NCBI GenBank assembly: GCA_026023565.1
Contig: JAPETS010000026.1
Location: 124,001-188,000 of the forward strand
Direction of reading: 5' to 3'
DNA: 64,000 nt
DNA from: Cirrosporium novae-zelandiae
Taxonomy: Eukaryota
This document shows, one piece after another, positions 39,106-64,000 of the stretch. The number at the start of each line of letters is the position of its first letter. Positions within the stretch are counted from its first letter, which is position 1. The notes beneath the pieces are model-generated. The model saw only the letters and a list, made by a program, of their open reading frames with translations, ran no database searches and was not told where the DNA came from. The translations under genes were made by a program, and so were the position numbers.

Positions 39106-39635
39106 TTTAGATGGTGGATGTAAAGCGTAAGCTGCGTAGCTAGTAAAGAAAACGGGCTTTATGAGCGCTAATTTGTCAATGAAGGGTAAGGCAGTGCACA
39201 CCTAGGGCTCCCACAACGACAATAGCAAGTAGGAAAAGATCATCGCTTTAAGAACTAGCTGCTTGTCATCGCCCCGCGTTCGCTATTTCAGCCTTTCTAC
39301 GAAGCTATGGAATAAGTACTTGGACTGCCACCTCCCGCCTCCTCGGGTTTTCTTGATGGCACCAGGCTTGGGTATCACTGCAGTTTATCCCGAAAATTGT
39401 TCGCCGTGGCTTGCCTTGCATTTTATCTGGCCTATTAGTCGAAAAGTTTTTCCTAGAATCCCTGTCCATGACGCAGACATTTCACTAGAACCACGGGAAC
39501 ATAAGGATAAAGAAGTTCAGTTCTAATAGCATGTTTACGAAAAAGTAGCCCTTATCATTCTATGCTTACGTTAGTCGAACAAATCCTCATTTACATTGTA
39601 CCAAGTTACTAAGAGCTGTGGCAGCATGTGCGGAA

Positions 39636-41627
39636 ATGGATATATTTAGCACAACTATCACCGTCATCCACGAGATCTACGCGATCACTGTCTTTATCCG
39701 GGGCGTTGTCAACGACGTCAGTTCGTACGAGTCAGATAAGAAAGATATCCAAGACAAATTGCAGCATGAATTCGTTTTCATCGATATGTTTAAGATTACT
39801 TTTCTCGACGAGGGTGCAGGTCGGGAGCGCTATATCAAGCAACCTAAGATCTTGCAACAGGACGTAAATATTACCTCAATGAAGCTTCGGAGTATTCTTG
39901 GAGAATATAGGACGGAGGCTGTCAAACATGGCCTCTTGGATCCTCACGATAATGCAGCTAATGAGGGAAGAGTGATTACGGCTAGAGCCGCTATCGCAAT
40001 AGACAATGAAGTATAGATTCAAGTTCACGCACTCCTTAAACAAATCAAGTCAACGGCGAAAGACCTAAAGAAGAAAGGTTTCAATTGGTCTCTATTCGAT
40101 AAGGCAAAGATTCTCCACACGCTGTGTGCATATACCGAATGGGCCCAGCGGCTACGACAAACCATGTCGCTCATGCTTTCCACCATGTTCCTTGGCGGCG
40201 ATGGCTATAACAGCCTAGGCGATTTTGCGAACACTCAAGTAGCAAAGGATATGGGGCTCCAAAACGTGGCAAGACGTCAGGCCCTTATTCGATCCAGCCC
40301 CCCAGGTGACTTCAAGGAACTCGATGGAACTGTTGTTGGAGGGTCTGAGTGGGCAAAGACATCACATCTAAAGATTGCCAAATACGTTGACGGCTGGGAA
40401 TCGGAGCCCAGAGAAGTCGTTTTAGAGTATCGGAAGTATAATAAAATACTAGCACTAGCAACTCGTTTTAGGCATGCAGCAGTTATCCGTCAGCTAAAAG
40501 AACCTATCAGAAAACTGGCTTGGCTGCTTCACAGCTCCACATTCCTGGATGGCAACGATGAAAGCCCTATGGGTACAGCCAACTATTCAACTTTGCTCGC
40601 TTTACAATGCATCGGCTACCTCGACCAGCCAGATCAATGCCAGACCATCTTTCTATACGAACTTCCGCAAGCAACAACTTTATGGGGAAATTCATGGATC
40701 ACAACACTTCACGACCTTATCAACAGCGTTGATCCCATAACGAAATACGCATTGCCCAAACCTGTTCTAGGACATCGCTTCTTCCTTTCTTATGCCCTTG
40801 CCTTAACGGTACTCAATATACATAGCTCCCGCTGGGTTCACGAGAATATCTCGAGCCATGGTGTTGTTGTATTTCCCGCACCTAACTTGTCTCGTCCCTC
40901 CGGAGCCCAGCGTTTAATTCCATACCTCACAGGCTGGGAATCTGCTCGGCCCATTCTCGGGGACACGGAACTAAGGCCTAATATCGAAATTGAGCCGAAT
41001 CTATATCACCACCCGATTCGCCAGGGGCAGCCGACAAGCCGATTTACCGCCGAGTATGATATCTATGCGCTTGGGGTCGTGTTGATGGAAATCGGGCTGT
41101 GGAAAACCATGAACAGTGTTTTCCATCAACAGATTGAAAAGGCTTTACGTGAAAACATATCGCCACCATTAATGTGAAGGCAGCGCTTAATACAGGCAGT
41201 GTGGTAGACTAGTGAGGCAAAGGAATATATAACTAATAGGTATAATATGCTATTCGCATGCTAGACGCAAGTAATGATGATAGCTTTCGAAGTGCTCCTT
41301 CTGTAGATACAAAAGTCGAACGCTGCCTTGATGAATCAAGCAGCGTTCTCCTACATAAAGGTTTGGCCACGCGCCAAGCCTCGCCTATGCGCCTACGAAG
41401 CGCATATGCTTGGCACGCCGTTACAATTAACCATGGTGAAGAGGAGGTGGGCTACCACGGCACGCCGAGAAGTAGAGGGTGAAATGGGAGAGGCTTATGC
41501 AGAAGCAGTTGACAGGTGCTTGATGGGGAGATTTGGTGTGGAAGACAATGGAGTTGAAAATAGTGGACTGCCTATAGCGTTTAGAGATTTGGTGGTAGAG
41601 GTTATGAGGCAGGGAATAAAGCTGTAA
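39636..41627 (+). pseudogene. HeLo-like N-terminal domain + kinase-like (pseudokinase) protein, disrupted
   Basis: Hydrophobic N-terminal helix, WSLFDKAKILHTL (HeLo-like W-x-x-F-D-K); kinase-like WVHENISS, PYLTGWESARP, LYHHP, YDIYALGVVLMEIGLW, MGEAYAEAVDRCL; in-frame TAG at 40014-40016 and solo LTR at 41173-41425. Confidence 0.78.
41173..41425. mobile_element. Solo LTR (family B) with 5-bp TSD ATTAA, inserted in coding sequence
   Basis: ATTAA-[TGTGAAGG...CCGTTACA]-ATTAA; near-identical segment at 59631-59801; diverged copy at 44231-44483. Confidence 0.88.
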
Positions 41628-44230: not shown

Positions 44231-44483
44231 TGTAAGGGCAGCGCCTAATTCAGGTTGCGTGATAGGATAACTATCTAAGTAGTGATTAACTAACTAGAAT
44301 ACTATAGGGTTCGCATTCGAGACGCCAGAATGATGATAGTTTTAGGAGTGCCTTTTGAGGTAGATACAAAAGTTGAACGCTGCCCCCATAATACGTGGGG
44401 TAGCGTTCTTCTTTATAGGATTACTCAGGCGCCAAGCGAGCGCTTCGTAAGCGCATAGACGTGATGCTTGGCATGCCCTAACA
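44231..44483. mobile_element. Diverged solo LTR (family B)
   Basis: TGTAAGGGCAGCGC...GTAGATACAAAAGTTGAACGCTGCC...TGCTTGGCATGCCCTAACA, alignable with 41173-41425; no matching TSD. Confidence 0.72.
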
Positions 44484-45168
44484 ATTATATCAAACTATAC
44501 TATGTTTTATACAGGATCAAAAATTTTCAAACCAAATTTCTTTTAGTTTTCGGAAGTGATAACTTCCGACACCCGGATAACATCGTCGATTAGAAAATAT
44601 TTACCGGGTACGCGGGCACGGTCGGATCATGGGCACGGTAGACTAAAACTAAATAGATTGCTTGAAATTAATTTATTGGATATCTGCGATATAAAGTGAC
44701 GTAGGTGGTTCTATGAAGGATTGCGAAATTATTGCTGCTTTAGTTGTTCTGTCCGACAACGGGGGTCCTACCTGAAACCCGGACGCCCTGCTTTGATTCA
44801 ATTATCCGAATATGGCCATGACCCAATTTTGCTGCTTTATCTGTCCGGTCTGTTCTGGGAGCTTTAATAGGTTAGAAGGGGGACCTTAAGCACTTGCTGC
44901 TCTATCTCGACATATACCGTCCCTCATTGAAGGGGGACGTCCCCTTCGTTAGAAAAGCGATCGTCTTAAAACGCATTAAGCACCAGCTAAACCAAGAAGC
45001 GGAATCACAGGCTCACCCGCATTAGTGGTTTAATGGTATAAACGAAGTTGTAGATGGTGAAGGTATGCTATTATACAGGACGCGGGAGCAGTAAACGACG
45101 TTTCTTTCACTAAGAGCAGATGAAAAAGTAGAACAGCGTGAATCATTAATACAATTGGTCAAGAAAGG

Positions 45169-45376
45169 CGTCCTACTCAAACGTAGGACGGAAACAAAAC
45201 GGCAAGATGGATAGCAAATAAATCATGTTGATATATCGTGGCTTTGTGAATATTTCCATAAAAGGGGACGTCCTGCCTCTACGCAGGACGAAAAAAGCAG
45301 CAAGATGGATAGCAAAAAAGTTATGTCATTATATCGTGGGCTAGTGAAGGAGGACGTCCTGTCTTTACGCAGGACG
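45169..45376. repeat. Three ~90-100-bp direct repeats each carrying a CGTCCTR-N8-YAGGACG inverted repeat
   Basis: Sites at 45169-45190, 45269-45290 and 45355-45376; the first two are both followed by GCAAGATGGATAGCAAA and TATATCGTGG. Confidence 0.85.
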
Positions 45377-45511
45377 AAGAAAATGGCACAGCGGTTAAAT
45401 AATGGATGTTCTAAAAAACAGTATAAAACTGTCCTGCTACTGCTGCAGTTCTCTCACATTGTTATTTTATTTTCGTTCATCAACAGTTCTAAGATCAAAC
45501 TACATTTTACA

Positions 45512-47767
45512 ATGACCGAAGTAGGCCGGCTTTCAAAAGACGACTAGCGCCGTCGTCGTGAAGCCAGAAACCAAGGAATCAGGGAGATAAAAGAGCATGC
45601 GGCTCCTACCAAAAAAGCTTTCAACTGGGGTCGAAGGCTGTGGTCGAAGTGAGTTTTGTATAGATCCACTATATACTTACACTAGCTACTAATATCAAGC
45701 GTTGAGGTACTGTGGAGAATTTGGATATACCCCCAACGGTCATGTAGCCAAATGTGACGTCGATGACTTTGAAGAATTTCTAGACTGGTGTTTGACTCCA
45801 CAGAACTCAAATATCAAACAGAAAAGCTCTCTTATACAATTATGGACATGGGTACGGTGCATGTATATCGAAGCCACGGGAAAGAAAATCACTCATGATA
45901 TTAATAAACGAATGGATTTTGTAAGTTGCCTACCGTTATAATCCAGATTTGTGGTAATGATTTTCAGGTTATCGAGCAACTAGCGAAAAGTGCAGGACTA
46001 AACTCCCAAAAAGCAAACAAGCCATGTTTAGGAGTGGATGATGCAATTCTTATTTTGGAGTCTCTTTGGAGCAGGATGAATCTTGCCTTTTCAAACGAAC
46101 GGCATAGAGTCCAGCTTTCGCTATTGATCCTTATCCATGCTTTCACGACTCAACGCCCCGGCTCTATTGTTGAAAGTAGTGACTACTACGGAACAAATAG
46201 ATGTTTGTGCTACAAACATGTCCACCTGCTTCTTGTTCCCAACCCAGAGGAACTAGGTCGCCCCATCATTATTATGGAACTGAAGCTAGAGCATCTCAAA
46301 GGAAAACGGGAGGAGAAAACTGGACCGTAAGATTCCACTAATAAATAATCACAAAATTGGGAAACTGATATCATGTAATTAGGTTGATATTTGTCTTTTA
46401 TGAAAGAGATGACTGTCTTGTGTTGTGTCCAATAGCTCATATGTTAGGCCTCGCATTTGCTGACAACGCATTTGAATCGGATTTCATAAAATGTCCCGAA
46501 GATATTTTCAAACTTGAGATACCTCCCTCTCGCCGGAGTATAGAGCTGAAATGGAAACCTGAGATGTTTGATATCCCGGTTTTCCGCGGCATTGGACATG
46601 ATGGGTCAGTCTCAAAAACACGAGCCCTTACATACAATGTGTTTTTTCATGACCTCGAAAGGATCGGGGACGTAGCCGGCTTCCCTATGAAGGTTACTCC
46701 ATATTGCATTCGTCGAGCTGGAGGCATGGCACTTGATGGTAAGCTTGTTCAAATAATCGTAGTATTAACTTTTTAGTTGATTAAATCGCTGATTATATGC
46801 AGAAACCACCACAGCTGCATTACGCAATCAAGCAATGGGACATGGCAGATCAAGCGTGTATCAAACCTATTATATGAGTTCCTATGTTAATGCTGATGTG
46901 CAAGCTGCATATCTTGGGGTACCTTCCAATAAGGCCCTATTCCGTGCTGTGGGGCGCATGTCTCTTCGAAGTGATGCCCGCGCACCCACTAGCCTTACCG
47001 ACGAGCAAAAGGCCGAGCTGGAACAAGACCCCTCGCTTATAGCATTGAGAAACGAAGTCCAAAGTATCAAGGAAGCAATCTCAAAAGAGTACGGCATAGT
47101 AACAAAGTCGAAAGGCACGGCGCTTTACAAAAGCTATATCAACGCACAAAACAGATATCGCTGGACGAGATACTCATTAAACCGTAAACGTAAAGCTATG
47201 GCCAGACAGAAATTCTTCGACACTATCGATACAATTGAAGTTGACCGACAGCTTGCAACCAAACTTAATCAAAAAAATCAAACCACAGCACTCGATAGTG
47301 ACAAAAGTGATCCGAAACAAGTATTCGAAATTCAGGAAAGAGCCATCCTGGTTGAGAACCTATTCCAACCTCAATCCCAACTTTCAGACCGCATTTTGGT
47401 AATACAAGCCATGACTGGGCTGTGCCGTCGAAGAGAGATGCCGGGAAAAACCCCAGGGGATCGGAGAACTCATCCAGCCAAGGAAGCCAAAATGGAAGAA
47501 TCGAAAAATCAACATTTCAACATACCTATAATCTTGAAATCCGTGCAGTGCATATTTTGTATAGGCGACACAAGATTGCCAATACGATCCCGTACCTACT
47601 CTTTCTCTCGGCCAGACGCGATACGGAGGCATATGGAACATTCTCATTACAGGCATATACCAAAAACTGTTACTATCGAGTGCCCGCATCCAGAATGTAA
47701 AGAGAGACTCACTGGAGTCGATCATCTGAAAAATCACGCACAAGTGGTACACGGAATCACCTCCTAG
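45512..47767 (+). CDS. Starship captain: DUF3435 tyrosine recombinase with C-terminal C2H2-like zinc fingers (5 exons; TAG at codon 12 in my gene model)
   Basis: RHRVQLSLLILIHAFTTQRPGSIVES, LCYKHV, CPIAHMLGLAFADNAF, LKWK...IPVFR, PYCIRR, RNQAMGH, YQTYY; CIFC...H...H and CPHPEC...HLKNHAQVVH. Confidence 0.9.
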
Positions 47768-48152
47768 AATATTGTGGCAGAGTCGGGTTAAAACCCTACT
47801 GCACGTATCAACTAGGCTGCCCAGTTGCCTAAGTGAGGGCTCCTACCAACAGGGTCCGAGGAAACTTGAAGAAATCTTTCATTAAAATTCTAGTTATAGG
47901 CTTATTTTCTTTTGTCATTTTTGATTTATTTTTACTGCAGTGACATGAAGTTGATGAGAAACCTGTTAAGAAGTCAATTTGTGTTCTGCAAACGTTGTTG
48001 AATTTTTATAGCATCTCATACCTTCATTAGACAGCATCTCAATTGATATTTTGGAAATTGAAATTGTTAACAATATAAAATTGGCGAACTTTGTCATTCG
48101 TTTTTGTCGAAAACCATCACAACACTTTAAAAAGTCATAAGCGTAGAATTTA

Positions 48153-48321
48153 GACCAGACCAGACCGGTCTGAAGATGATTACTCGAGTATTGCTGCGGT
48201 AACTTGATTATTACTATAGCAGCAACAGTCGTGAACGTCTTTACTGCTGATCCGTGCCATCCCAACATAAGGTTATTTTGACCATGTCAGACCGGTCTGG
48301 TCTGGTCTGTTCCCTTCCCTG
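48153..48321. repeat. Family C TIR-element fragment with internal 22-bp inverted repeat
   Basis: AGACCAGACCAGACCGGTCTGA ... TCAGACCGGTCTGGTCTGGTCT followed by GTTCCCTTCCCTG (TIR-like end). Confidence 0.6.
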
Positions 48322-49397
48322 CTAAGCAGTGTGGTGAGGATAGCTATATAGATGGATAGCAATAAAGTAATATACAAGATGTAGTTAATAATGATAACTT
48401 AGAAGTGACTCCCGTAATAGGTTTAAAAGTCAAGCGTTACTTTGCTAGGCAACGTTTTTCACTAGCTAGGCGTGCCTTAACGAATAATAATGGTGAGTGA
48501 AGCTGACGGGCCAATAAGTAATAAGCGCCAAAAATATTACCCAAACGCCCAAAAGTTATAGTCTAATTGAAAGGGGGTCCCCCTGAGAAAGAGGTCGTCT
48601 TCGCTGGGTTTATCTATAAATTTGGGCTCATAGTATTTAAAAATTTGATATCATATCACTAAAATCTATATTTCAATTAAGGTATAACGTATAGCTTAAA
48701 GTATCAATTTCTAGTACGATAAGTTGTTTATACTAAAAGTATTTTATTGCAAAATCGCTAATCTTATATAAAACAGTCACATTCACCCTTTACATCTTCC
48801 TTAATACCTTATATTTTGAATTATGTGCTTCCCTATAATTATAATCCAAGCATCCCCATCCGGCCCGCTTCAACAACATGATTATAAAGACCGTGGAGGG
48901 TTTATCCGATTGCCAATAACACATCGAATGCAGAACTCCGTAGCAAGCATTGAACGAAGTATAAAACGGATACTATGCAAGCTTTTGGGTCATAGAGAAG
49001 TGGATCTAGAGGAACAGTTGCCGCCTCCATATATCCGCGAGTTCGTGCCTTTGGAAAGAAAGCGATATCAAAGATTAGTCGATGCTTTTATAGCTTCACA
49101 TTGAGTTATCGTCAAGGTCATGAGCTGGTCTCATGTGCATATGTTATTTGGAGGATTGTGGTATGGTGGAAAGGTCCTAAGGCAGTGGAGACAAGTAGGT
49201 GAAATGTACTAGCCTTTTACAATAAGTCCTCAAGCATATCTATTCAATACTCAAAGTATTTATTGGAGACATACAATACACAGTAAGGAAAAGAAGGTTA
49301 TCGGGACTCAGGGTATCGATACTCTAATAATCATGGATAGACTATCTAGCACGTCCCTGGGTACCTGGGAGAAAAGCCACTATGTCTAGTGTTGAAG

Positions 49398-49757
49398 CAG
49401 CGAAGGGAATGGACCAGATCGAATAGACGGTCTGACTCCGACCAACCAGACCAAGCTTTTTCATAGACCAATCAGATTTTGACTGCCCAAGGTCTATGTC
49501 GGTCTATATAAATGCGAATTATAAGGTGAGGAGGGGGGCATATTTTTGGGGTGTTGAAGTTTGTTGGGGCATCGGAGCTCGGTATTTATTCCGTATACAT
49601 TATATTATCTCCACGTGATATCACGTGGAGATAATATGTAGTGTTGTGAATCAGGGTGTAAAATTTTCCCCGTATTCCGCGTGGCCTGTATTATATGACG
49701 GTCTATAGTATACACCGACCAGACCGAAGCCCTTGGTCTGGTCGGTTTGGTCCATTC
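49398..49757. mobile_element. Family C TIR element copy with a central 36-bp perfect palindrome
   Basis: CAGCGAAGGGAATGGACC ... TTTGGTCCATTC; ATATTATCTCCACGTGAT|ATCACGTGGAGATAATAT at 49602-49637. Confidence 0.65.
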
Positions 49758-51363
49758 TAAATGCAGGTGCAGGAATTTATCCTAAAGTGATGCTGCCAAG
49801 AAGTTTCTAGACTAGCCCAAGTTTGGGTGAAAAGAGTGCTGGATAAGCGAGTCAGAAATTGCGTTCTCGACACTGGGTACCCTACCGTTTGTTATAAGGA
49901 TGTAGAATTAATTCTATGCTATGCAGTCTTGGCACGGAATATGCCGGAATATCAATATAACCCTTGCAGGGAGCGATATATTAGAGCTTAGACGGTAATT
50001 TGACACTGAGTATTTGATAATCCTTAGAATCTTCATTAAGATAAGTTTCTACTAAAAAAAGCTGTGTAAGAAAATTCGAAAGTGATACTGTGAAAGTCAT
50101 CACACGCGAATAAAATAAAGATGTTAGCCGATAACAAGAATTTGAAGCCATTCAGTTAGCCAATCTATCACACACGTCCGCATTTCTTACAATCATTATG
50201 GGCGCATCTAGCAACGGTATAGTTCAACCCTTCTGGGGCTGGATCTGTGATAAAGGTGGATACAACCTAGGCACGATAGCAGACCCTGAACCAAGTAAAG
50301 CTTTGGACAATGTTCATAGATGGAATAAAGAGTTGCTTGAGATTGTTTGAGAATATCTATTACCAGCGCTCGAGGATGCCATCCCATACAAAAAAGAAAC
50401 CTGATTATAGGCAGCCAACATTGGATAGCTCAATACTTTGTTTGAAAACTCGAGGGAGCATAACCAGAAAAGCAAGCTCATTTGACTGAGATAGAATAAC
50501 TTCCGGCATGATAATATGATCTGGGAAAAGTGTTTTTTACTCAACTCAACCAAACCCAGAAACTCCAAGCAGTACCAAATAACGCTGCCGCCGAAGCCAT
50601 CCACTGAAAAATATTGGAACCATCCATCAAGCATGCTCATAAGGATGGCACTAGAGCTACAGGGTAGTCGTGACATACATCCTGGCCTGAATTCTTTCTG
50701 CCAGGTTAACCTGTGCCTGAGTCGGCACCTTTTTGCCAATACCAGGATCCTGTACAGAGTGCATGATCCTCTCCCTTTTCAATTGCCACCCAAGACCCTT
50801 ACGGGCAGGCTTGCTAGAGGCCTTCGGATGGAAGAGACGGCAAACAAGGGGGTCACACTTACCTCTTTGTAACTATAGAGGTGGCAAGCAGTGAACATTG
50901 CATCCAAATGGATTTTTTATCGGAGAGTGCTGCATTGACTGGGCAAAACTAGTGGCTCCCCACGAGTGCGGTCAGCTCATTCATCCGAATTAACCCTTCC
51001 ATCTTGCATAACTAGATACGTCCAAGAGATATCACAACTTTTATGACGAAGGCTCCTCCTCTTATCAACCAAGGGCATGGCTGAGCATTGCGCCAGACAG
51101 TTTCATCTAAAGACGAGGCGTAATTGTCCCGCTGAAATTGATAGCCCTAGCTAGCTTTATTGGAGGATACTAAATAAGTGACAAGATATTTCTACTTGTA
51201 TCTGCTTCGTGATGAAATCATCAGCGCTTACATTCCCGGCAGCTGGACCAAGCCCAGTGCTTAAAAGGGTGTCTATTCCCCTCTCTTTACTCCATCAAGA
51301 CTTTCAAAGTTAACCATTCTTGTTTATTCCCAGAACTAAATTTGATGCCAAATCATTCCAAAT

Positions 51364-53100
51364 ATGTCGTCAAAATCGTTGTCCACGCTACCCTTGGAAG
51401 TTTTGAATAATATTATGCAACATGTTTGTCCCCAACTCTTGTTCACTATTTGATCCAGAGAGCTGATATCATTTTTAGCTTTTTCAATCTGATTTACTCA
51501 ACTTGAATACTACCTGTAAACAGTTACATTATTTAACGCAACCCGAACTTCTGAAGACTGCATTCATCGATATTCCCGGCTCATGCTTGTGCTCCTACAC
51601 CAAAAAACGATACCTTCATACTATCGAACACCTTACAGAGTATTCGAGAATAGTGAAAACCATCTCCATATGCGACAACATATTTCTCAGTCAGCTAGAG
51701 CCAAATAGGGCCCCGAACTGGGATAAGGAGCTTCTGGGTGGACTCAGTGAGACGATTCAACGTTTACTGAAATTAGAAAACTTCAAGTGAGTGGCCTACA
51801 GCCTGTGGTATTAAACCAATTTAACCAAATTAGATTTTCCCCTAAAAATCTTAAGAATGCTGCAGCGAACAACTGGTTACCTGACCTGTGGACTGCACTT
51901 TCTTCGTTGAAATCCTTGGCTATCATGGATATAATCATCCCGCATACCCTACCTGAGAACATCTACTTTACTAGCCTACATACTTTAAGATTATATATCC
52001 GCCCAGGATCACTTCCTAGAACCTTACCTTTGATGCCCCAGCTTACCCATCTTACCTTGAACTTCGATAGAGGCGTGCATAGTATCCACCAAAACAGAGT
52101 GCACGGCTTTATTAGTTCCCAGACCACTCCCAAACTTTCAAATCTTCATATTCAAGACAATGAATTTGTTCTTGAAATGTTTGACCAAATATCTTTTGTT
52201 AAACCTGAAGTTATTAGTTTCTGCAATTGTGGTGCCATTTCTACGACTTTAATCTCTCTGCTTTCGGTCAATCTGGAGATCCTAACCCTCAAATTTTGTT
52301 TTTTGACATCTGATTCAACCGAAATCATATCTTTACCTCGTCTCAGACAGTTGAATATACTCCGTTGCGATGGAAATGACGATCAGTTCTGGCTTCAATT
52401 TTTGGATTGCCCAACACTCTACTCGTTGACCTTTCTATCTATACTCAAGCGACCTGCAGTGCAATTGGCTCTCGCGTTATTCCTCGAAAGGAGTAAACAG
52501 ACATTGGAAGTTTTTAGTTTGGGGAATAAATCTAAATCCCACAATGACGAAAATGAGAATATACTGATTACAGATCTCTTTATCAGTATACTTGGATTAA
52601 CAAACATCCGTTTCTTAGTCTTGAGGGATCGCAGCATGCTAACTCTACGCATGTTGGCTAAGCTGGTGCAATCCACAAAACTATCCGGATTAGCCTTAAC
52701 TTTGGACGGAAAAAACCATGATCCCAAAGATCTATGGCCAAATGTGAGTTTTCTCGAGTGACAAGCATTCTTTTTACTATATACTGATAAGTATATCCAG
52801 TTCTACAATTTGAAAGCAATGTTTAGCCCGGATCTACAGTATCTGTGGCTTCACACTGGTTGGATTAATATTGAAAGTGACGATGCCGATCAATTAATTT
52901 CCGATTGGGAAGCTGCTAGTCAGACCTGCCAACAGACACCTACTCTATGTCAGCTCAGTATCGAAGGACAGGCTTACATGGTGGGGACGTGCATGTCAGT
53001 ACATGGACCGAGGCTTAGGCCCGTTTTCTTAGGCCAGGTTCCAATCTCCTCTTATCATCGAAAGATAAATGCCAAGATATGGCTAAATAATGTTAGATAA
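51364..53100 (+). CDS. F-box protein with LRR-like C-terminus (Starship cargo), spliced
   Basis: Spliced N-term MSSKSLSTLPLEVLNNIMQH-LFQSDLLNLNTTCKQLH (F-box pattern); LxxLxL repeats (LHTLRL, LTHLTL, LSNLHI, LRQLNI). Confidence 0.7.
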
Positions 53101-53437
53101 TAGAATGTTTGCTCTATATACAAAGCGAGGATATAAGGAAATAAAAATTCTTTGGCCCTCTAAGGTCTTTCCCTTCATCATCAATTTACAGAATATTTCG
53201 TCAAAATCACTAAGGTAAGAACTTGTTTTAGATTCTATAAAGAGTTCTCATGCAATTGCTCAGCTAGTAGTCTTTATCTAAGGTCGTGGCGCATGAGCCA
53301 CGTGAGGGCTGGAACCATAATATTATGATGCTAATAACCGTAACTGCTACAAAACGAAGGCTTGTCATATTGAGATAGCTACGTACAACATTTTAATTTA
53401 CATCGCTTTGAACGAATCTTCAATCCCAAACCCGTAT

Positions 53438-56400
53438 CTATGCTAAACGAGGTCGCTTTGCTTGTCGCCCACTCTCGTCCGGGTTGGCACGCTTCTTGCC
53501 TCGCGGTTCACAGCATGGTGTTTGACACCCCTGGCACCAAATTCCTGTTGACTTTTTATGTTGGGCAGAGCCAAACGGGGAATCTAGATTCTGCTCTTTA
53601 ATAAACCAACCTAAAGTCTGTGGGAGACCACTGAGTCTCCGGTGGACCTTTTGACCTATCCTTATTGAAATGTTGATAGGATCATCTAAACCTCGAGCAT
53701 AAAAGCTGACCTGCTTACGATAGCGGTGGCAGAAAGAGCAAATATCAACAGTCTTATCCAACGCTCCTATCGTTAAAGGACCCATTGTGAATTCGATTTC
53801 TCCTGGATACAAACGTGTCAGAATCTGGATAAAAACACTGCTATTAATGCGGCATCGAATGAACCCCTGGCATCGATAAATCCCGGAGTCGAATTGAGGC
53901 ATAGAAGATAGCTCAAAATATAGAGAAGAAACCAAGAGGGCAAACACGGTATTTTGCCACTGTGCTGAGTTTCCGGGTTGGGCGTGAACACGGGTTTGGA
54001 GTTCTTCCATCTTATCTATATCGTCAAGACAGGGCTCGGAACCGGAAAAAGAAACATTTAATCGAAAATAATCCATTTTTGAATGTTTATCTAGACGATT
54101 CCGGAGAGATTTCCACGAAGACTGCCCATCAAGAGAAGACATAAACGATCTATACAATCTAGGACCGAACCCGTCTCGGAAAATATGACGGAATTTGGTT
54201 ATTTTTGGAGATTGAGCCATATTTTCCCCGGTCCCTGTTCCCAGAGAAACAACGACATCAGGATTTCCCGTCGCGGGCCAGATGTGTTGGCTTTCCCAAA
54301 GTGCAGGATCAAGAGGACAGTTGTATTTAAGACCGCCATTTTGGAAGGATCCCAAACCGGAAACATGAGCAGAAGGGAAAGCTCTGCAACTCTATTAATA
54401 TACTCGATGCGCCAAGGACAACGACGGATGGATAAAACTTACAAAGGAGCAGCCGAGGTTGCACGACCCCTATTGCTTGAGTTAGCTTTATTTGGTGGCC
54501 AAGTTTCACTATGCTTACGCTTCCCATATATATGGCTCGTTCTCGGGTGATATCGGCCTTATATGTTTGTACCCACAATTCTTTTCACGCAAGCCAATGC
54601 CGTTGTAATTGGAAAACAAGCACAGCGAAGCATCAGATATGCTTGTTGCGGTCACTGCAACTTTCGTGCCAGAGATAGTACCATGAGTACAATCGAACAT
54701 TCGATGCTTTACTCCAAAGCTTTCTTTCAATGCTTGCTCAAGAGCTTCAGCATCGTAAAAGCCATCGGAGAGCCAACAGCGGATCAATTGTCGTATATGT
54801 CCAAACAACGAGTGGTTTGATTTACGCATTTTACCGAAATAGCTTGTGGCGAGGGCTTTAAACATCCGCAAACACTGTGATATGTTCCATTGTTGAATAA
54901 ATAAACCAAGGACAATAAGCCCACCTACGTAGACTAGTTAGATAGATTTGGACTTTTGGGTTTAGTTAACATACCGGAGCTAGTCCCCACAGCAAGGTCG
55001 AAGAAATCTTGAATCCGGCAATCAGAGCCAAGTACATTCTGGAGAGCCGATAACATTTCCAATGGAACAATCCCCCGCACACCACCTCCGTCAATGCTTA
55101 AAATTCGAACTCCAGCCGTTGGTGGCTTAAGTCGTACCGTTAAAGAGTTTCCTTTTTGACAAAGAACACATGCCGAGAGCATATAATGATGTTCTAGTCC
55201 AAGGACGTCCTCTCCGAGGATTTCGACACATGTGTCACAAATGCTATGACCGCATTGAAAGACGTGTTCTGGCTTACGGCGAAGACAGAACAAACAAGTC
55301 GTGTTGAGCTTGATTAAGGGCCAGTATTCTGCGTTTACTCGAATATTTTTGAGATGGACCTGAGATGATGAATTGCATTCTTTGATAGTGGGTTGCAGCT
55401 TTATAAGATGGTCTTCTATCGCGCGGCATTGAGATTCTGCAAAGGAAGTATCTTGGTTGAACGTTTCAAAAGCAACAAGGCAGGGTGTTCGATAAAGCCG
55501 ATGGAATACCAATTTCGGATCAAAGTCTACCCCCAAAATTAGGATTTGTTTCTACAATCTTCGATCATGAAGCTTACCATGCATCCCCGGAGGGTAGGCG
55601 TCCATCAAAATACTTGAAGCTATAAACAATGTAATAGCTGGATCAGGGAGTTTATGTTTGGCACAAACCCTTACGAAATCGAGAATATGATTTTGGAAAT
55701 TGTTGTCAAGGCTGTTTTGATTCCTTGAAGCTAGAATGAAATCAAAGCATGAATGCAATGTACTTGCGGTATGTTGTACTGCTAACCCAAAGAAAGCTTC
55801 AAGATGCAATGCCGAAAAAAGAAATTGATGTTGCAAACGAGTTTCTCGAGCATCGTCCAAATCATTGAGAATGATCTCTTTCAGTCGCCGGTGGCGAGCC
55901 AGAGATGACAGATGTTTTCCCGGAAGCGACACTAATTTGATCGAAGAAAAAGACTGCGACAAATCTGGCTGCTGTAGACTGTGACGGAATTCGTTTTCTT
56001 TAAGCATCAGGTGAGTTGTGCTTCCATAAGAATTAGACGTGATAACGATCACCTTCGGTCGTAAGGGTAGAGGCAAGTCTGACGCAGAATGGATACTGGC
56101 CCATATTTTTAGATGTTGGGCGACAGCCTCAAAGCCGCCATAGTCATCCGCAAAAAGACACAGAACATCAGTAAAAAGAAAGAACAGACGTGCAAAAATA
56201 ATGTCTGGTATACTATGTGAGCAATAACCAGGCCAAGAAATTGGAACAATTGTCCTTTCATGACAGTTGAACGTATTTTGTACATCCCGAACCTGCGGGA
56301 AAGGGACAGCATCGGCAAAAAAGATTGGATAATTAGAGTTTGAAGTAGAATAATCCAATCGTAAATTTGCAATACCTTGAGATTGACGTCGTCCGATATT

Positions 56401-56589
56401 ATTTTCCGGAAACAATTCTTTCAAGGCTATTTCCTTCTTCCCTTTGCCGATAAAGAAGACTATCCTCGGGAACTGGGACGATGGGTTATTCAGTGAATGA
56501 ACAAGCCGGGCTAGCCGAGCTTCATTCACTAGGCCTGCTCTAGCCCCGCTAGAGATCCGCAGCCAAGATGTGTGTGGGCATGAAGTCAT
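53438..56589 (-). CDS. Patatin-like phospholipase with Cys-rich region (Starship-associated PLP), spliced
   Basis: ILSIDGGGVRG, FDLAVGTSSG, RATSAAP, FQNGG (DGG position); CLFC...CGHSICDTC...CVLC upstream. Confidence 0.88.
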
Positions 56590-56822
56590 TTTTTTTTGTA
56601 GTTGACGTTAGAAAGATAAGAAACTTGATGAAAGAAACAGTATTGAGTGGTTGTTGTTGCTGTCAATGGCTGTCCCTTGGTCTTTTTATATTGGGACCTA
56701 CGTCCACTTCCATGAACCTCCGTGAAATGGGGTCCCCCTTTCCTCGCGCCTCGTAGTACCCTGACACTATTAAGGTATGTCACAGTCAAAGCAGATGATG
56801 CCCAACTCCATTTTCCTAACAA

Positions 56823-59414
56823 ATGGCTAATCTACCTCTGGCTGGCTCTTCTTCACAGGCACTTCATCAGGCTCGACTCGGATACTTCAAGCTTGAGATT
56901 CAACACCTAAGGTTCGAGGACGAGGGATCTAGAGTAGGAAACCGAGCCCTTGACCTGAAAAATGTCGCTCGGCTTGTTAGGGTGTTCCAACTCGAAGGTT
57001 GCTTGCGAACGAAAGAAAAAAATACCGTGTCCGCATTAATTTCGATTGAAAATTACCAATCCTATATTGGAGATGTTGACCAGCGACCCCAGACCCCGGA
57101 AAAAGCTATACGATTGGCTATACCTGATGGTGGCGTCCTTACCTGCCTAACTGGACGTCATCGAATCGCGACAGCTCAACAATTCCTTCCTGCGAATGAT
57201 CAATGGTGGATAGTGTGTTTATACAATGACAGTTAGTAGCCCTTCCGTTTTTAATGTTTTCTCGTCTGACTATAGACTGTTTAAGTTTTGGATGGCGTAT
57301 CACAAGCCGAACTTCGAGAGAGTTACGATAACAATCGTCCATACACTGATGGGGAGATTTTTAGAAACATTCGTTTTCACCAAAAAGCTGGTAATACAGT
57401 CGCTGAGGGGAAGTGGATGGCGAGACTCACCATGAGCAAACTAAAGGACTTGCGGCAACTTCAACGTCAGGAAGCCCTGATCCCACTCCTTAGAGCCTTT
57501 GATACTCTTCTGGATTTCCCGGGCTTATGGCCAAGGTTGCAACTTGGGACCTTTCACCGTCTTTTAACTATGCACTGCCCCGAAGTATGCTTGCATCACC
57601 ACCGAATCTTAGATATCGCTAATTGATTGCAGGAGTTGGCTCATTATTTGTATCATATTGAAAATGACTGGACTTTGATTATTGAAGATCTCGCCAATTA
57701 TCATATTGATTTCCAAACCGTAGAGTATTTGCAAGGCCTTTCTCCTCACTGGTCAACCGAAGATCGATCCACTATCGAGCGATATTTTTTGCAAAATATA
57801 GTATTTAGTGGCGTCACCAATCCCAATGACCGGCAGAGACTACAAGCGCGAGTGTTATCGATCCCTAATATAATTCCATCACTACATACCTTCCTTGAAG
57901 ACACTAAATATCTCGAACCGTGTTCCAAAATATTGAAAAGTCTACTCCCAGTGAGTACGAAAAAAATTTCGCTTAGAAAAGGGTTTAGCCAGCATTATTT
58001 TCCACCGCCTTCTAGAGAGACTCGGGTTTATACTAGTGAACAAGATGTCGTAACCTATTGTTCTCAAGCTGATCACGGGTTTATGTCTGGCTACCGTCAG
58101 CTTTTCCTATTTTCCATGCGCCATTTCCCTTCTTTATCTGACCTCGGTCCCCGGAAAGATGTCTTTGTCACACCCACGTCAAAGCTGCCTCCAGATATTT
58201 GCCGATATGAGCTCGTGACACTAGCTGCCGGACTTGGGTTTAAAACGCCTATGATCGAAAACTACCTAAAACAGAATCCCCTGCAGAAACTAGCCGGAAG
58301 ATTCCTGCACGATGCAAGACCTAGTCAAACCTATGACATTGATGGCGCCAAATTTACTGATGGAGTAGACCAGATATTGGTTACACTTGAAAGTTTTAAA
58401 CAACGAGCTTCAAATTCTTATGACCCTCAGCTTTCCATTGATTCAGGGCGCCGAATTCCTCTGAAGGAACGTTGTGGTCGTCCATTCGAATCTGGATTTT
58501 ACAATGATCACCCTCATCTTTTTCTACGACAGATTTATCGGGAATGGCAGCCTATACCTCGACAGCAGATTAGCTCTTTTTCTGTCAAAAGAGACGTCTT
58601 TCGGGCCTTTTTTGGAACAGAAACTGACTTGCCGCCCTCCTTTGAAGGTTATTCCGAAAATAACCAACCACCACCTTCCACCGAGGAGGGGTTTGTTCCA
58701 CCACCTTCTATAAGGGATTTAGCTCACGACAGCGGACATCGTAGTACTGATGCTATGAATGGTCCAACACAGGATGAGAATGAGAGAAACTCTATTGATA
58801 CTCAGTTCCCTATATCGCACCCAAATCCACCAACAAGCCATCAGGAGATTGTTCCTGCCCCCCAGCAACTGTCTTCATTTAATTATCATTCTCCGGAAAG
58901 TTACTATTCTTCAGTAATAAACTGGTCTACGTTTCCTGCGATAGAACGTGAGCAGCAAATAATGGACCCTATATTAGAGGATTCGTTTTCAGGGAACCAA
59001 GTCGAGGCGCCTAATAGTAGTTTTGTACTTAACGAAGAGTTGACAATAATACAGTCTAGGCACCCCCAAAATCATGCAATAGCAATCAGAGATGCTGTGC
59101 AATTTCAGAAAGAATGGGGAAAACAGCAAGATCGTACTATAGTTTACAATTGGTCACTTCAATGTCGTACTCCCATTGGATCTGAAATAAAATTGAGAGA
59201 ATTCGTTATTAATACAATAGAAGAATACTCTTTCTTTGTGGCGCAGATTGACGGTAGCAAAGCAAAGCTCACGACTATTGACCCAGGTAAACTTATAGAC
59301 AGCGCAAATGATAAAATATTCATACATGTTGTCAAAAGGGGCAGCAAACAGGAGCATCGAATTAATTATGAATTTTCTCAGCAATGGTTTCATGTACATC
59401 GCAATGTTCTTTAG
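56823..59414 (+). CDS. DUF3723 protein (Starship-associated), 3 exons
   Basis: NVARLVRVFQLEGCLR, CLTGRHRI, WWIVCLY, DGEIFRNIR, LLDFPGLW, HCPEE, IPSLHTFLEDTKYLEPC, YRQLFLFSMRHF, ERCGRP, VKRDVFRAFFG. Confidence 0.88.
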
Positions 59415-59464
59415 CGGAAATAGGAAAAATTGATCACACTTAGACGACATCTGTGGAGAAAGAT

Positions 59465-59629
59465 TTGGGGGAGAACAGCACGTAGGGGATAGAATCCCGT
59501 AGGGAAAGAGAAGCCTTGGGGGAGAACAGCACGTAGGGGATAGAATCCCGTAGGGAAAGAGAAGCCTTGGGGGAAAACAGCACGTAGGGGACAAAATCCC
59601 GTAGGGAAAGAGAAGCCTTGGGGGAGAAC
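59465..59629. repeat. 51-bp tandem repeat, ~3.2 copies
   Basis: TTGGGGGAGAACAGCACGTAGGGGATAGAATCCCGTAGGGAAAGAGAAGCC unit; anchors at 59471, 59522, 59573 and 59624. Confidence 0.92.
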
Positions 59630-59630
59630 T

Positions 59631-59801
59631 CGCATGCAAGACGCAAGTAATGATGATAGCTTTCGAAGTGCTCCTTCTGTAGATACAAAAGTCGAACGCT
59701 GCCTTGATGAATCAAGCAGCGTTCTCCTACATAAGGGTTTGGCCACGCGCCAAGCCTCGCCTATGCGCCTATGAAGCGCATATGCTTGGCATGCCGTTAC
59801 A
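59631..59801. mobile_element. 5'-truncated LTR (family B)
   Basis: Near-identical to 41255-41425, ending GCCGTTACA. Confidence 0.85.
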
Positions 59802-60040
59802 GAAAGCGAAAGAGTGTTTAAATTGTCGTGATGCAGATTTATACCCTCTTCAAATCCTAATACAATGCAAAGGTTCCCTTGAAACCAAGCTTTGCCGTAA
59901 CGGCAAGGTATATAATAAGTTTGTATATCCACTAATGTTTGATAGATATTAAATTCATCTTGAAGGTGTTGAATCGTCTCATCACCATATCTTTTATCAG
60001 CGAATTTTAGGATCAATTGTTGAATAGGGAATAAGCATGG
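59802..60040 (-). pseudogene. Kinase-like gene fragment truncated by the LTR
   Basis: ILKFAD...LQDEFNIYQTLVDIQTYYIPCRYG...CIVLGFEEG resembles a kinase N-lobe (K, alphaC E, 'IP..YG'); the reading frame runs into the LTR. Confidence 0.45.
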
Positions 60041-60639
60041 GTCTGAAGCTGCAAGCCAGACAGGTCTTTAAGGGTTGATTGATAAATTTTTGATGAGCCG
60101 AATAGGAATGTGTGTTAGGCTCGATGTAAAATTTAGGTAATCTTCAAAGAAGTTAGTTAAATTAATAATCTTTAGTATTATATCTTACCAGATCTAAAAT
60201 TCAGATTCAGATGATCATCATTTCCCGAAAGGCGTAAATCCAGTTCCATAGAACAGATGTAAGAAGCTCAAAGGCTCCGGACTGTATGATAAGACTGTGT
60301 CGTGGTCATAAAATATGGAGCTGACTTCGGTTCAGCTATGGTTGGAAGGTAGGGGCATTATTTGATCGCTATAACACAACATCAAAGTTAAAGTTCTTGG
60401 CAGCTCCCCAGACACCCAAAGTTTAAGAGGGAGCTCTACTCGAATAGAAAGTTTGCTTTTTTTGTGTAATTACTAAGCTAGTAGTAACCAAGCACCAATA
60501 TGGCGCCTAAGGCGCGCATGCAACTAGGTACTCAAAGTGAACCGCCAAAGGCATTATCCACAACAGATAGCATAATTTTCATAAATTTAATAGCTTTTGC
60601 CACGAAGAAACAAGTGGAGAGTGTGGCCTTTTCATTCAC

Positions 60640-61520
60640 TTGCCTAAGGTCTATTTCGGTCTATATAAATACACATATAAGGTGGGGGGGGGGAATTTGT
60701 GGTGTTGAGGTTTTCGAGGGGGGTTTGGGGGGAGAGAGTTCGGGAGAAGTTCGGGGTAAGGAGCCTTGGAATATGGGTTCTCTAATTACCTAGTAAAATT
60801 AGCCTTAACTCGAGAAATATGAAACCAACTTAGCTTTTTTTTTGTATAGTACTCTCCTTAATCACTTTTATCCTCACTACCCCCTTCAACACCCCCCTCA
60901 ACACCCCCATCATCACCCCCATCACCATCCCTATCACCATCTTTCTCATCACTTTCCTCACCACCATTATGTCTGTTAGATCGATTATTCGCGTTAAATA
61001 CAACCCATCACCCCCAATTCATGCAAATTCTTCAGATATATCCTCTTTGTCAGTTTCAACCTCATCTTAAGCTCCAAATTCAAGCCAAAAAACCTCAAAT
61101 TCAAGCCACGAAACTCCAGATAATACCCATCCTAATATTTCGAAAAAACGATTCAAAATCGATCAGAACTATTACCTTTTAGCTGATAATTTATATAATA
61201 CTAGAAATAACACGACCTCATGGATTCACCGACATGGTACGATTTCATATTATAATTGGGAAGAGCTTGGAAATTAGGAATAATAAACAGTCGGAGGCCG
61301 CATATCCAGTTAGCTAGCTAGAATAGAGCATGTCATTCGAACTGGAGGCCATATGCTCAGCTAGCTAGCTAGAACGCTGTTTGGTGAAGCAAGGGAGAGG
61401 GGGAAAGTCAACACCAAAACTTTCACTAAGATCTTGACTTATATATTATATAATCATTGACTGACCAATCAAACCCCTGTTATATCATGTGACCGACGGT
61501 CTGGTCCATTCCCTTCACTG
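60640..61520. mobile_element. Degenerate family C TIR element
   Basis: AGGTCTATTTCGGTCTATATAAAT...GGTGTTGAGG matches 49490-49560; ends GGTCTGGTCCATTCCCTTCACTG. Confidence 0.5.
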
Positions 61521-61974
61521 TTTCTGCCACTATAAGTATCACTATCCCTCGCTGTTTTTCCATTCTCATTTCTTCTTCTTCATTTTCTCCTCAGTTTCGT
61601 GCTTGACGCCCTGTCATCCTTTGCTCCGAGTCCCGCACTGTCTGCCTTGCCAATGCATTCTCGCATCCAACCGAAATTGCTCAGCTCCACTATTGTCTCA
61701 TTATTCCATCACTGCATCTACGATCACGGCCGTCCCACGGGATGTGGTGACGCGGATTGCATTGTGTTTATTCCTTGGTGTTGTTAGATGGATTTACGAT
61801 TCTGTCTTGGATGCTCTGTGAGACGGGTTTCACTTCCTTCAGATGACTGACTTTTGAACCAGTCTTTGACCGCTAGCTTATTTTCTGTTACCTTGACGAG
61901 GTATTTTATCTTGCTTGTCTAAGTTCGCTTGCTGCGATCTCTCTGAGAATGGCCATAGCCTGAAAGCCGAGACG

Positions 61975-62556
61975 CTGTGTTGGGAATTTTGTCTGTAGAT
62001 ACCATATACAAATGCGAGCTTCTTGTGGTGTGAGAATTTGCAATCACAGTACGCCGGATACCGGCACGACAAGAAAAGTGGAACGTTACTGCTGCTTTGA
62101 TCGATGATACAGCCAATAACAAAAATGTCTCTTATTTTCCGCAGTCTCAGCTGAATGTCTGCGTTTTCCTGCCAAGAGAGTGGCTTGCGGTTTCGTGGTA
62201 AGCCGATGAAATTTCCTGCTGGACGGGTGACGTGGATCTGAAATTTTTGAAGGCAGGCAAATGCAGTTGATTGATGGGACAATTATACTCAAATGCAGCT
62301 GATGCGATATCTGCCTACATGTGCTAGAGGCGAAGCGCCTCGTCCGTGGGGATTTGGTGGGCCCATTCATGCAGAATGGGTGGATTGCTGCAAATTGCCT
62401 GAACCAAGGCAGCTGATCTCTGCACGCACGACGTGTATCCAGTTCTCGGTATCCTCCCCTGCCAACCTCCGCAGCATTTTGGTGTATGAGCTCCATGGCT
62501 TTGCTGCTAACGTGCTGGGTTCAATTTGTATCCCTGAACGGCAGGAAACGCTATGA
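61975..62556 (+). pseudogene. Degenerate hypothetical cargo gene
   Basis: Frame LGILSVDTIYKCELLVV*EFAITVRR...LPREWLAVS, GTAAG donor, then QLMRYLP...WGFGGPIHAEWV...; family not recognised. Confidence 0.35.
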
Positions 62557-62970
62557 GATTAGGTGAATCCTTCGAAACTCTGTTTAGCAGAGTTAAGGAG
62601 GGAATCGAGATCAATCGAAACCTCTCAATATCATTTTAACAGGAATGTAAACCAGTCAATCACCAGGAGACACTCATATAGTAGTAGAACTGCAAGGTTG
62701 GGCGGCAAGACGAGGCAGTCGAAGTATCTCGGCCTTCAACAGGCTTAATACCTGCCGCATGCAGATTTTAGCTGAGTTTGCGTGGCCACTTGGGCTAAAC
62801 GATCAGGAGAAGGGTTCATGCAGTACAGTTATGAGCCAGTGTGCAAGACGCCATTCGGTGAATAGTGCCACTCTCTGATGTCTATAAAAGTCTCTCGTCG
62901 CTCCAAATTCATACCACAGCAGACCTTACTTTTCTATGCAAATTAGTGTGATTATCATCAGTTATACACC

Positions 62971-64000
62971 ATGGATTCCATCATCATGTACCAACCTCCA
63001 GTCTCTACGGCAGTTCCCAGGGCAGTTCGTACTATCAACGAGCTAAGCCCATTTCAGTTGGGCTTGTCCCAATTATCTTCAGCCGTAGCACAGCACCAAG
63101 AGAGAGTCGAAACGAATCAGTACTAGAAGAATATGGAAAGTGGTGATAGCTTGGCTCCTCTAGGCGCACAAAACCAGTTCGCGGTATTTAGTGAAAGAGA
63201 AATTTCCGGTGTGTTAGAATCTGTCTATGTCAGGGTGACTTTGTCTAACAAACATAGAAACACCAACCATCGATACTATCAGCCAGGTGCCCAATTATAA
63301 TAGTGACGAAACTATCGTTTTTCCATCTTTCAACGAGGTCACCTCTCGTGATGATCATCGTCAGCAGTCCAGAGATATTAATGCTGTCGAGCCCAAGCTC
63401 GGATGCGAACTTCCTAACATTAGGGAAACCGTTGCCGAGAAGAAACTGACGAAGTCCACCAATGCTATTCCTGGGTACAGTCAAGGTGAGCTCCCTTTGT
63501 ATAGCAATGTGTCAATGTGAGAATCTTTATCTGATTATGTCCAGATAACCCAGTAATGCTGGATGAGGATCAATCTGAACTTCATGAACCATCCGGTGCT
63601 GACACTGTTTCTTGTGACACCAATCTTACGGATGTGAATCCGAATGAACTCTCTCGGCCTCAGAAGTTAGGCTGCGCAACATCGAACGGTGGTGATTCTA
63701 GCCGGAACACCCCGCTTCAATTTTCTACTGGCGAAACTAGCCGTGATGACAAGATTTCATTCTCAGCCAGTCTGCAGAGCAAGAGCAATTCTCCCTTTTC
63801 TCACAGTTCTTTCGCATGTCTTTCTACCGAAATATCACACGGTGAACATCGTAAAAGTCTGCGCACTGTTGCCGGCTGCGATGATCTGGGTTACTCCGGC
63901 AATCGTTCATTGTTCGATGTTTCTACTGAGAGTAATCATAAGGAACCAATTCCAGCTGTGCCACCTAGGAAACAGATAAAGCCATCAACATCCTTTCCGA
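62971..64000 (+). pseudogene. Spliced low-complexity hypothetical gene, 3'-truncated by window, with in-frame TAG in exon 1
   Basis: ATG 62971; TAG 63124-63126 in frame; two plausible GT-AG introns; last exon open to window end. Confidence 0.45.

Follow-up and report, generated by a model that had tools for sequence, protein, structure and literature searches.

How the captain recombinases of Starships recognise the ends of the elements that they move is an open question; a 2024 survey, in the part available, presumes a role of direct and inverted repeats in both excision and integration and gives it as not yet shown (PMC11162782). A locus of Cirrosporium novae-zelandiae poses the question in a concrete form. 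The window, a stretch of 64,000 nucleotides (contig JAPETS010000026.1, positions 124,001 to 188,000) to which all bare coordinates refer, holds three palindromic sites directly upstream of a captain gene. An earlier note on this DNA had taken them for sites of captain-mediated recombination or autoregulation, with 5'-UTR hairpins or sites for a dimeric transcription factor as alternatives. On balance, our sequence comparisons favour the reading that they are polar subterminal protein-binding sites at both ends of a Starship that targets a tRNA gene and restores it. The evidence base is a single genome, and a 22-bp site confined to both ends makes the question of end recognition directly testable.

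Palindromes upstream of the captain gene

The three sites are 22 bp long, start at 45169, 45269 and 45355, and are thus spaced by 100 and 86 bp, exactly as first described; the half-site reported at 45076-45082 is present as well.

45076..45094, forward strand: half-site, right arm only (arm 45076-45082), followed by a GCAGTAA box
45161..45382, forward strand: degenerate tandem units (100 and 86 bp), each with one of the three sites
45169..45190, forward strand: left-end site 1, with a CGTCC-N12-GGACG core, 131 bp inside the left boundary of the element
45269..45290, forward strand: left-end site 2, 231 bp inside the boundary, followed by a GCAGCAA box at 45297-45303
45355..45376, forward strand: left-end site 3, 317 bp inside the boundary and 135 bp before the captain ATG
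45512..47767, forward strand: gene of the captain, a DUF3435 tyrosine recombinase; five exons inferred, C-terminal part rich in Cys/His, exon 1 with an in-frame TAG (45545-45547)

Shuffled sequence held a mean of 0.01 sites, and three sites together occurred in none of 100 shuffles. The exact site pattern has three matches in the whole 31.4-Mb genome, all of them at this left end (control pattern, 0). When up to two mismatches were allowed, 136 matches stood against 192 for the control, which shows that the motif is not generally enriched. The proposed layout of 7-bp arms around an 8-bp spacer describes the arms and spacers correctly, and the three left-end spacers do differ from one another; as perfect repeats, however, sites 1 and 2 are 8-6-8, and the core common to left-end and right-end copies is 5-12-5, CGTCC-N12-GGACG. 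Units 1 and 2 have a further 58 bp or so outside the site in common (79% identity), while unit 3 keeps the site and diverges after it.

The compensatory A-T/G-C change claimed for the arms exists as a pair of changes but is weak evidence of compensation, being one pair only and lying in a RIP context. Between site 1 and the other two sites, one arm shows a CpA/TpA difference and the opposite arm a TpG/TpA difference, which is the canonical context of fungal RIP. Because RIP alone gives paired changes in any palindrome without selection, we put little weight on this pair; at the same positions, the right-end sites described below do not pair strictly.

The identification of the downstream gene as a captain held, with a DUF3435 domain (PF11917, 354 bits) and a Cre-like predicted fold. 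DUF3435 alone passes for the captain among Pfam families, and the prokaryotic integrase family PF00589 does not. The structure model was built from the database gene model, whose first ~20 residues come from another frame, and its fold assignment alone is used here. Residues R154, K202, R321, H343 and Y353 are conserved with homologues, which suggests a catalytic role. The ATG lies at 45512, 135 bp after site 3 as predicted and 473 bp from the element boundary, but the frame that it opens reaches a TAG at 45545-45547. The database gene model (P0001, window 45512-45648) starts in another frame and skips this stop; the frame that resembles the homologues is the one with the stop, at codon 12. 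Because of this early in-frame stop the captain copy is probably dependent or dead, and this copy of the element has probably lost its autonomy. Other inverted repeats lie further inside the element: a perfect 36-bp palindrome (49602-49637) and a 12-9-12 repeat (49714-49746), both near GGTCTGGTC-type miniature repeats, which also occur at 43.2-43.6 kb and 48.1-48.3 kb.

A tRNA-Gly(GCC) fragment and the right ends

On the contig that holds the window (C48), the boundaries of the element are defined by a tRNA gene and by the sequence that precedes it.

44231..44488, no strand assigned: dispersed repeat of ~255 bp with ~40 genome matches, at which the similarity between RE-A and RE-B ends
44489..45038, forward strand: RE-A, right end of an inferred older sister element, 92% identical to RE-B
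45019..45038, forward strand: displaced 5' fragment of tRNA-Gly(GCC), nucleotides 1-20 (acceptor strand, 5' strand of the D-stem, D-loop), the left junction
45039..64000, forward strand: first 19 kb of the element, which continues to G000:C48:254682
~53.4-56.6 kb: patatin-like gene
56.8-59.4 kb: DUF3723 gene
G000:C48:254134-254682: RE-B, 550 bp before the intact tRNA at the far end of the element

Element-specific, unique DNA begins at 45039, directly after tRNA nucleotide 20, and nucleotides 20/21, where the junction lies, mark the 3' end of the D-loop, which is 7 nt long. A pattern search of the genome returned six exact copies of the 20-nt fragment, namely five intact genes and the fragment in the window (chance expectation, 0.0001). 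Neither a displaced 3' half of the tRNA nor a second copy of the left end was found in genome searches, and Rfam gave no match in the locus that holds the junction. That the left end might itself be a decayed tRNA 3' half was rejected, as its alignment score was reached by 73% of shuffles. One unitig covers 44987-46300, that is the junction and exon 1, with no differences and at single-copy depth; it probably stems from the source sample and checks the assembly only. No RNA run is listed as containing this DNA, and the contigs showed neither a circle joint nor an empty-site joint. Two other places in the genome resemble this junction. A decayed sixth tRNA-Gly(GCC) copy (G000:C44:6505) carries 7 extra bases right after nucleotide 20, the junction position of the window, possibly as an excision footprint or as a plain D-loop duplication. 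At G000:C55:179568, 20 nt are identical to the window junction, including the first three element bases, and a weak left-end-like continuation follows (score 50 against a background maximum of 34 in 110 pieces, at a place selected by the shared 20 nt); it is possibly a decayed left junction.

A genome search with the DNA upstream of the junction matched 44489-45041 to C48:254134-254685 at 92% and to two other contigs (C40 and C52) at 71-76%, and all matches stop at the same point. At the far end on C48 and on the two other contigs, this right-end sequence continues into an intact, intron-containing tRNA-Gly(GCC). It occurs in four places only, each time fused to position +1 of tRNA-Gly(GCC) or of its 5' fragment, in a genome with at least 62 tRNA-like loci, and the other two intact copies of the gene (C37, C41) are without it. 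RE-A and RE-B (L047:4135-4683) differ by 42 substitutions, of which 25 are C-to-T or G-to-A towards RE-A and 8 are the reverse, in mixed contexts and not in CpA only; RE-A thus looks like the more decayed copy. The order of right end, tRNA fragment and left end in the window suggests that an older sister element rebuilt the tRNA here and that the present element then inserted into the rebuilt gene, in tandem. Of the older element, neither a captain nor a left junction is left upstream, and the surroundings of the right ends on C40 and C52 contain neither. The C40 and C52 tRNAs do not differ at any position, and the three introns linked to right ends begin and end alike; the whole tRNA could travel with the right end (capture), or gene conversion could be at work. 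Two collinear patches with 69-75% identity, which the genome search did not return, lie upstream of both right ends. A solo LTR of a Ty-like, tRNA-adjacent retrotransposon was rejected as an account of the right end, which is tied to a single tRNA species, leaves no host spacer before +1 and shares the left-end site.

Some features around the right ends are recorded here in their own right. The dispersed repeat next to RE-A falls into two subfamilies (window 44231-44488, 41172-41429, 59630-59801) and has a very high summed depth. The C40 right end (G000:C40:295662-296362) is split, with its tRNA-proximal part and the tRNA inverted relative to the distal part and one break beside site 2. Left of the element, at 37429-39201, a fungal fruit-body lectin domain is fused to a protein kinase, among genes that do not look like core genes.

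Between its junctions the element measures 85.6 kb (G000:C48:169039-254682), bounded by tRNA nucleotides 1-20 on one side and the intact tRNA on the other. Beyond the window, where the gene scan took open frames of 170 aa or more, it holds ferric reductase, ABC transporter, ankyrin, SAP and C2H2 genes, and past the far-end tRNA follow alpha-amylase, sulfatase, HET, Sen54 and RTP1 genes. DUF3723, patatin-like (PLP) and ferric reductase (FRE) genes, all present here, are three of the four Starship auxiliary families named in the accessible part of PMC11162782; an NLR gene is not shown, the element having ankyrin matches only. The captain comes first and faces inward, auxiliary genes are present, the element is large and carries cargo, and tRNA nucleotides 1-20 form a direct repeat at both junctions. 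By its captain, auxiliary genes, size and boundary repeat, the element is, on sequence, a Starship. The exact crossover point is not placeable because 530 bp further upstream are shared as well.

Recurrence of the site at the right ends and its rival explanations

The earlier note had suggested a search for the motif at the right end of the element. It recurs there in inverted orientation, and also at the related right end on C40. The copies in the window are the following.

44764..44785, reverse strand: RE-A site 3, one core mismatch, 254 bp from the junction
44842..44863, reverse strand: RE-A site 2, decayed here and less so in RE-B; a GCAGCAA box follows
44918..44939, reverse strand: RE-A site 1, 100 bp from the junction, with a perfect core (5-12-5), in the orientation opposite to that of the left-end sites and overlapping the 44929-44947 hairpin

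This hairpin had been described as related to the three sites. It is present, but it overlaps a fourth full site (44918-44939) that is on the opposite strand and outside the left boundary of the element.

With at most one mismatch, CGTCC-N12-GGACG was found nine times in the 258,010 bases scanned: three times at the left end, twice in each right-end copy on C48, once at the C40 right end and once as a stray. Genome-wide there are 12 perfect cores (control pattern, 5), six of them at these ends, and the remaining six have no end-like context; the cargo of the element contains no perfect site. A weight matrix built from the three left-end sites only and run over both strands of 287,009 bases ranked right-end sites 4, 5, 6, 7 and 9, all of them inverted, with an unrelated place at rank 8. 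Coverage of C48 was 114001-300000; the weight-matrix scan left out C48:248001-249999, a piece that the core-site scan covered. Left-end sites lie 131, 231 and 317 bp from the junction and right-end sites 100, 176 and 254 bp, all facing inward. Read in the inward orientation, all eight well-kept sites have A at position 6 and G at position 8 of their central 8 bases. A GCAGCAA-type box follows several sites, and 8 of the 10 matches to the combined pattern of site and box are at these ends. Right-end sites 2 and 3 are imperfect, and at C52 most of site 1 is lost.

Comparisons of the ends as wholes were weak or negative. In local alignment, the left end reached a score of 40 with inverted RE-B (highest shuffle score 33), the same score of 40 with forward RE-B (highest 38) and a score of 35 with inverted RE-A (highest 36). 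Shared 6-mers of left and right end were not enriched, and in an 8-mer comparison 42 of 13,916 windows equalled or exceeded RE-B. A terminal inverted repeat was not found; aligned with the inverted right terminus, the outermost 62 nt of the left end scored 20, a value reached by 43% of 500 shuffles. With this site at both ends, the palindromes are very probably element-end signals.

One competing explanation is a segmental duplication of the upstream block together with tRNA-Gly, one copy of which was truncated by a Starship or by a deletion; the true right end would then lie elsewhere or be lost, and local tandem duplication would have produced the palindromes as a side effect. Units 1 and 2 do form a tandem duplicate, no empty site was seen, the identical tRNAs at C40 and C52 are what duplication would give, and a match of 550 bp far exceeds the direct repeats of Starships, which are 2-16 bp long in the available text of two studies (PMC11162782; 10.1101/2024.06.28.601215). 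Unit 3, however, keeps the site and not the flank. Duplication also leaves unexplained the inverted copies of the left-end site in the upstream block, the absence of a displaced tRNA 3' half and the Starship auxiliary genes that fill the interval, and we consider it improbable.

The proposal that the sites are loxP-like core sites, at which the recombinase would cross strands over, is not supported. Inverted arms around an asymmetric centre of 6-8 bp and the Cre-like predicted fold of the captain speak for it, as does the small inversion that breaks the C40 right end next to site 2. The boundary, however, lies 131 bp before site 1, in the tRNA D-loop, and the centres differ among copies, whereas strand exchange by Cre and lambda normally needs matching overlaps. 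The arms are also short, 5-8 bp against 11-13 bp in loxP and dif. A crossover role is very improbable. The suggested alternative of hairpins, either as RNA in a long captain 5' leader or as DNA cruciforms, is very unlikely: each left-end site can form an 8-bp stem (about -13 to -15 kcal/mol), but the right-end arms pair over 4-6 bp only, the paired change has a mutational explanation, and hairpins in a 5'-UTR give no account of the copies that lie 85 kb away on the other strand, where no captain transcript runs.

A different view leaves the element and its boundaries untouched and takes the palindromes for an operator or enhancer of another dimeric protein that controls captain transcription, encoded by the host or by the cargo (for example DUF3723, SAP or C2H2); the right-end copies would act once the circle places them upstream of the captain. 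The sites lie 135-340 bp before the ATG, and their varied spacing and second box (GCAGCAA) resemble a promoter module. With no perfect site in the cargo and no genome enrichment, however, the site is no promoter word of general use in the host or throughout the element, and its inward polarity at both ends fits end recognition. It also lacks the CGG triplets that Gal4-type Zn2Cys6 sites contain. Even with the increase of captain expression by the right end of Hephaestus in the circle (10.64898/2026.09.21.753150, as far as available) counted in its favour, we regard control by another protein as rather unlikely. For end signals bound by a protein, which we prefer, the captain is the most likely candidate, and judged from the sequence it has about an even chance of being the binder.

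No close relative was found: the nearest captains have 37-40% identity. Among 13 metagenome captain loci, six had upstream DNA, and none of these six showed the site or similarity to either end. In this genome ten contigs have DUF3435 matches, one being the present locus, and the site was absent from six other captain loci (0/6), two of which are RIP-destroyed upstream. The expectation that related Starships carry the motif was thus borne out by the C40 sister right end and partly by C52, but not by other captain loci; because these are only 23-37% identical, the absence says little. At two metagenome loci with distant captains (32-36%), L085 and L091, the captain lies ~350 bp from a 5S rRNA gene. 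This gene (L085:933-1052, L091:5-124) is on the strand opposite to the captain, and its 5' part looks replaced by element sequence, a possible case of partial 5S rebuilding; a third locus (L093) has the same left end without an adjoining 5S gene. Two copies of another captain of this genome, ~24% identical to that of the window (G000:C90:51540-53010 and C45:361706-362888), have upstream DNA in common, one being open and the other RIP-destroyed.

A proposed mechanism and known systems

The tRNA gene was probably split and rebuilt by the element. In the mechanism that we propose, the right end would carry tRNA nucleotides 1-20, and a circular form would join right end, tRNA fragment and left end. 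The captain would then recombine the circle with a chromosomal tRNA-Gly gene around its D-loop; the host 5' fragment would stay behind at the left junction, and a whole, rebuilt gene would stand at the right junction. As the rebuilt gene would again be a target, elements could stack in tandem, and the present element would have landed behind the right end of its older sister. The full combination, a Starship lineage at the D-loop of tRNA-Gly(GCC) that carries the 5' half for gene rebuilding, accretes in tandem and uses palindrome arrays as captain-binding sites, is put forward tentatively. As a speculation, the permanent junction of RE-A and left end mimics the promoter of the circle and may have favoured inactivation of the captain.

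The arm sites of lambda Int, the TnsB sites of Tn7 and the res subsites of Tn3 are several, non-cleaved, unevenly spaced and inward-facing, and lie away from the crossover. The sites described here, for which position, polarity and specificity are shown, resemble them in layout; unlike them, they are palindromic, and the captain has no recognised arm-binding domain.

Among Starships, those that target 5S rDNA (Voyager, Enterprise, Arwing; PMC9156397, PMC11162782) are alike, in the accessible parts of these sources, in an inward-facing DUF3435 captain in first position, DUF3723, FRE and PLP genes, a size of ~86 kb and insertion inside a Pol III gene. In contrast, the target here is the D-loop of tRNA-Gly and not 5S, and arrays of subterminal palindromes at both ends are not described for those families in the same material. 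The 5S-targeting elements fragment or disrupt the 5S gene (available text of PMC9156397, PMC11162782, 10.1101/2024.06.28.601215), whereas the target gene here appears rebuilt. According to what is available of 10.64898/2026.09.21.753150, Starship movement goes through a circle and the right end boosts captain expression. Hephaestus (PMC10104507; 10.64898/2026.09.21.753150, both in part) has such a captain-driven circle, in which the right end joins the captain promoter, and the RE-A/left-end junction of the window has the layout of a circle junction. Unlike the present element, Hephaestus has short TIRs, restores no gene and uses a short target, TTAC(N7)A, in hundreds of places.

Some supplementary tables aside, the available Starship literature (including PMC13004909 and 10.1101/2025.11.25.690456) describes no Starship that targets a tRNA gene or restores its target, and it maps no array of captain sites. 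One tandem Starship insertion is described in the accessible text of 10.1101/2025.02.28.640899. Starship insertion sites, 222 in number, have been screened with tRNAscan, and 5S rDNA and AT-rich sites are the only targets that the results text mentions (PMC11162782); in the supplement of that study up to Table S10, all 10 matches to 'tRNA' are synthetase annotations, and Tables S12 and S13 (insertion sites, curated repeats) may bear on novelty. Table S1 of the study includes Fusarium elements with GTGGTA in their direct repeats. The word 'tRNA' occurs 0 times in the available text of 10.1101/2024.06.28.601215 and 10.1101/2025.02.28.640899. If our reading is true, the palindromes would be the first concrete DNA sites for a captain, and the tRNA gene would be a place in fungal genomes, single and harmless, at which large DNA could land. 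A tRNA gene and its fragment with a captain between them also give a search rule that works within a single genome.

The closest parallel is found in bacteria. In the islands catalogued by Islander, an intact tRNA and a displaced fragment in the same orientation bracket 2-200 kb with a tyrosine recombinase; tandem arrays occur, the 5' fragment is displaced in 159 of 3919 cases, and the subsites listed are the anticodon loop, the T loop and the T/acceptor junction (PMC4383910, accessible part). The element shows the same arrangement, with a tRNA and an end fragment in the same orientation, the 5' fragment upstream, a length within 2-200 kb and a recombinase inside. It differs in its eukaryotic host, its intron-containing tRNA, its DUF3435 recombinase and a D-loop junction outside the listed bacterial subsites. 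An element that rebuilds its tRNA, if confirmed as such, would carry the parallel with bacterial islands further and account for the stacking in tandem; it would also represent damage-free tRNA integration in a eukaryote at a subsite not listed for bacteria. By analogy, the element appears to work like a bacterial tRNA island without being one.
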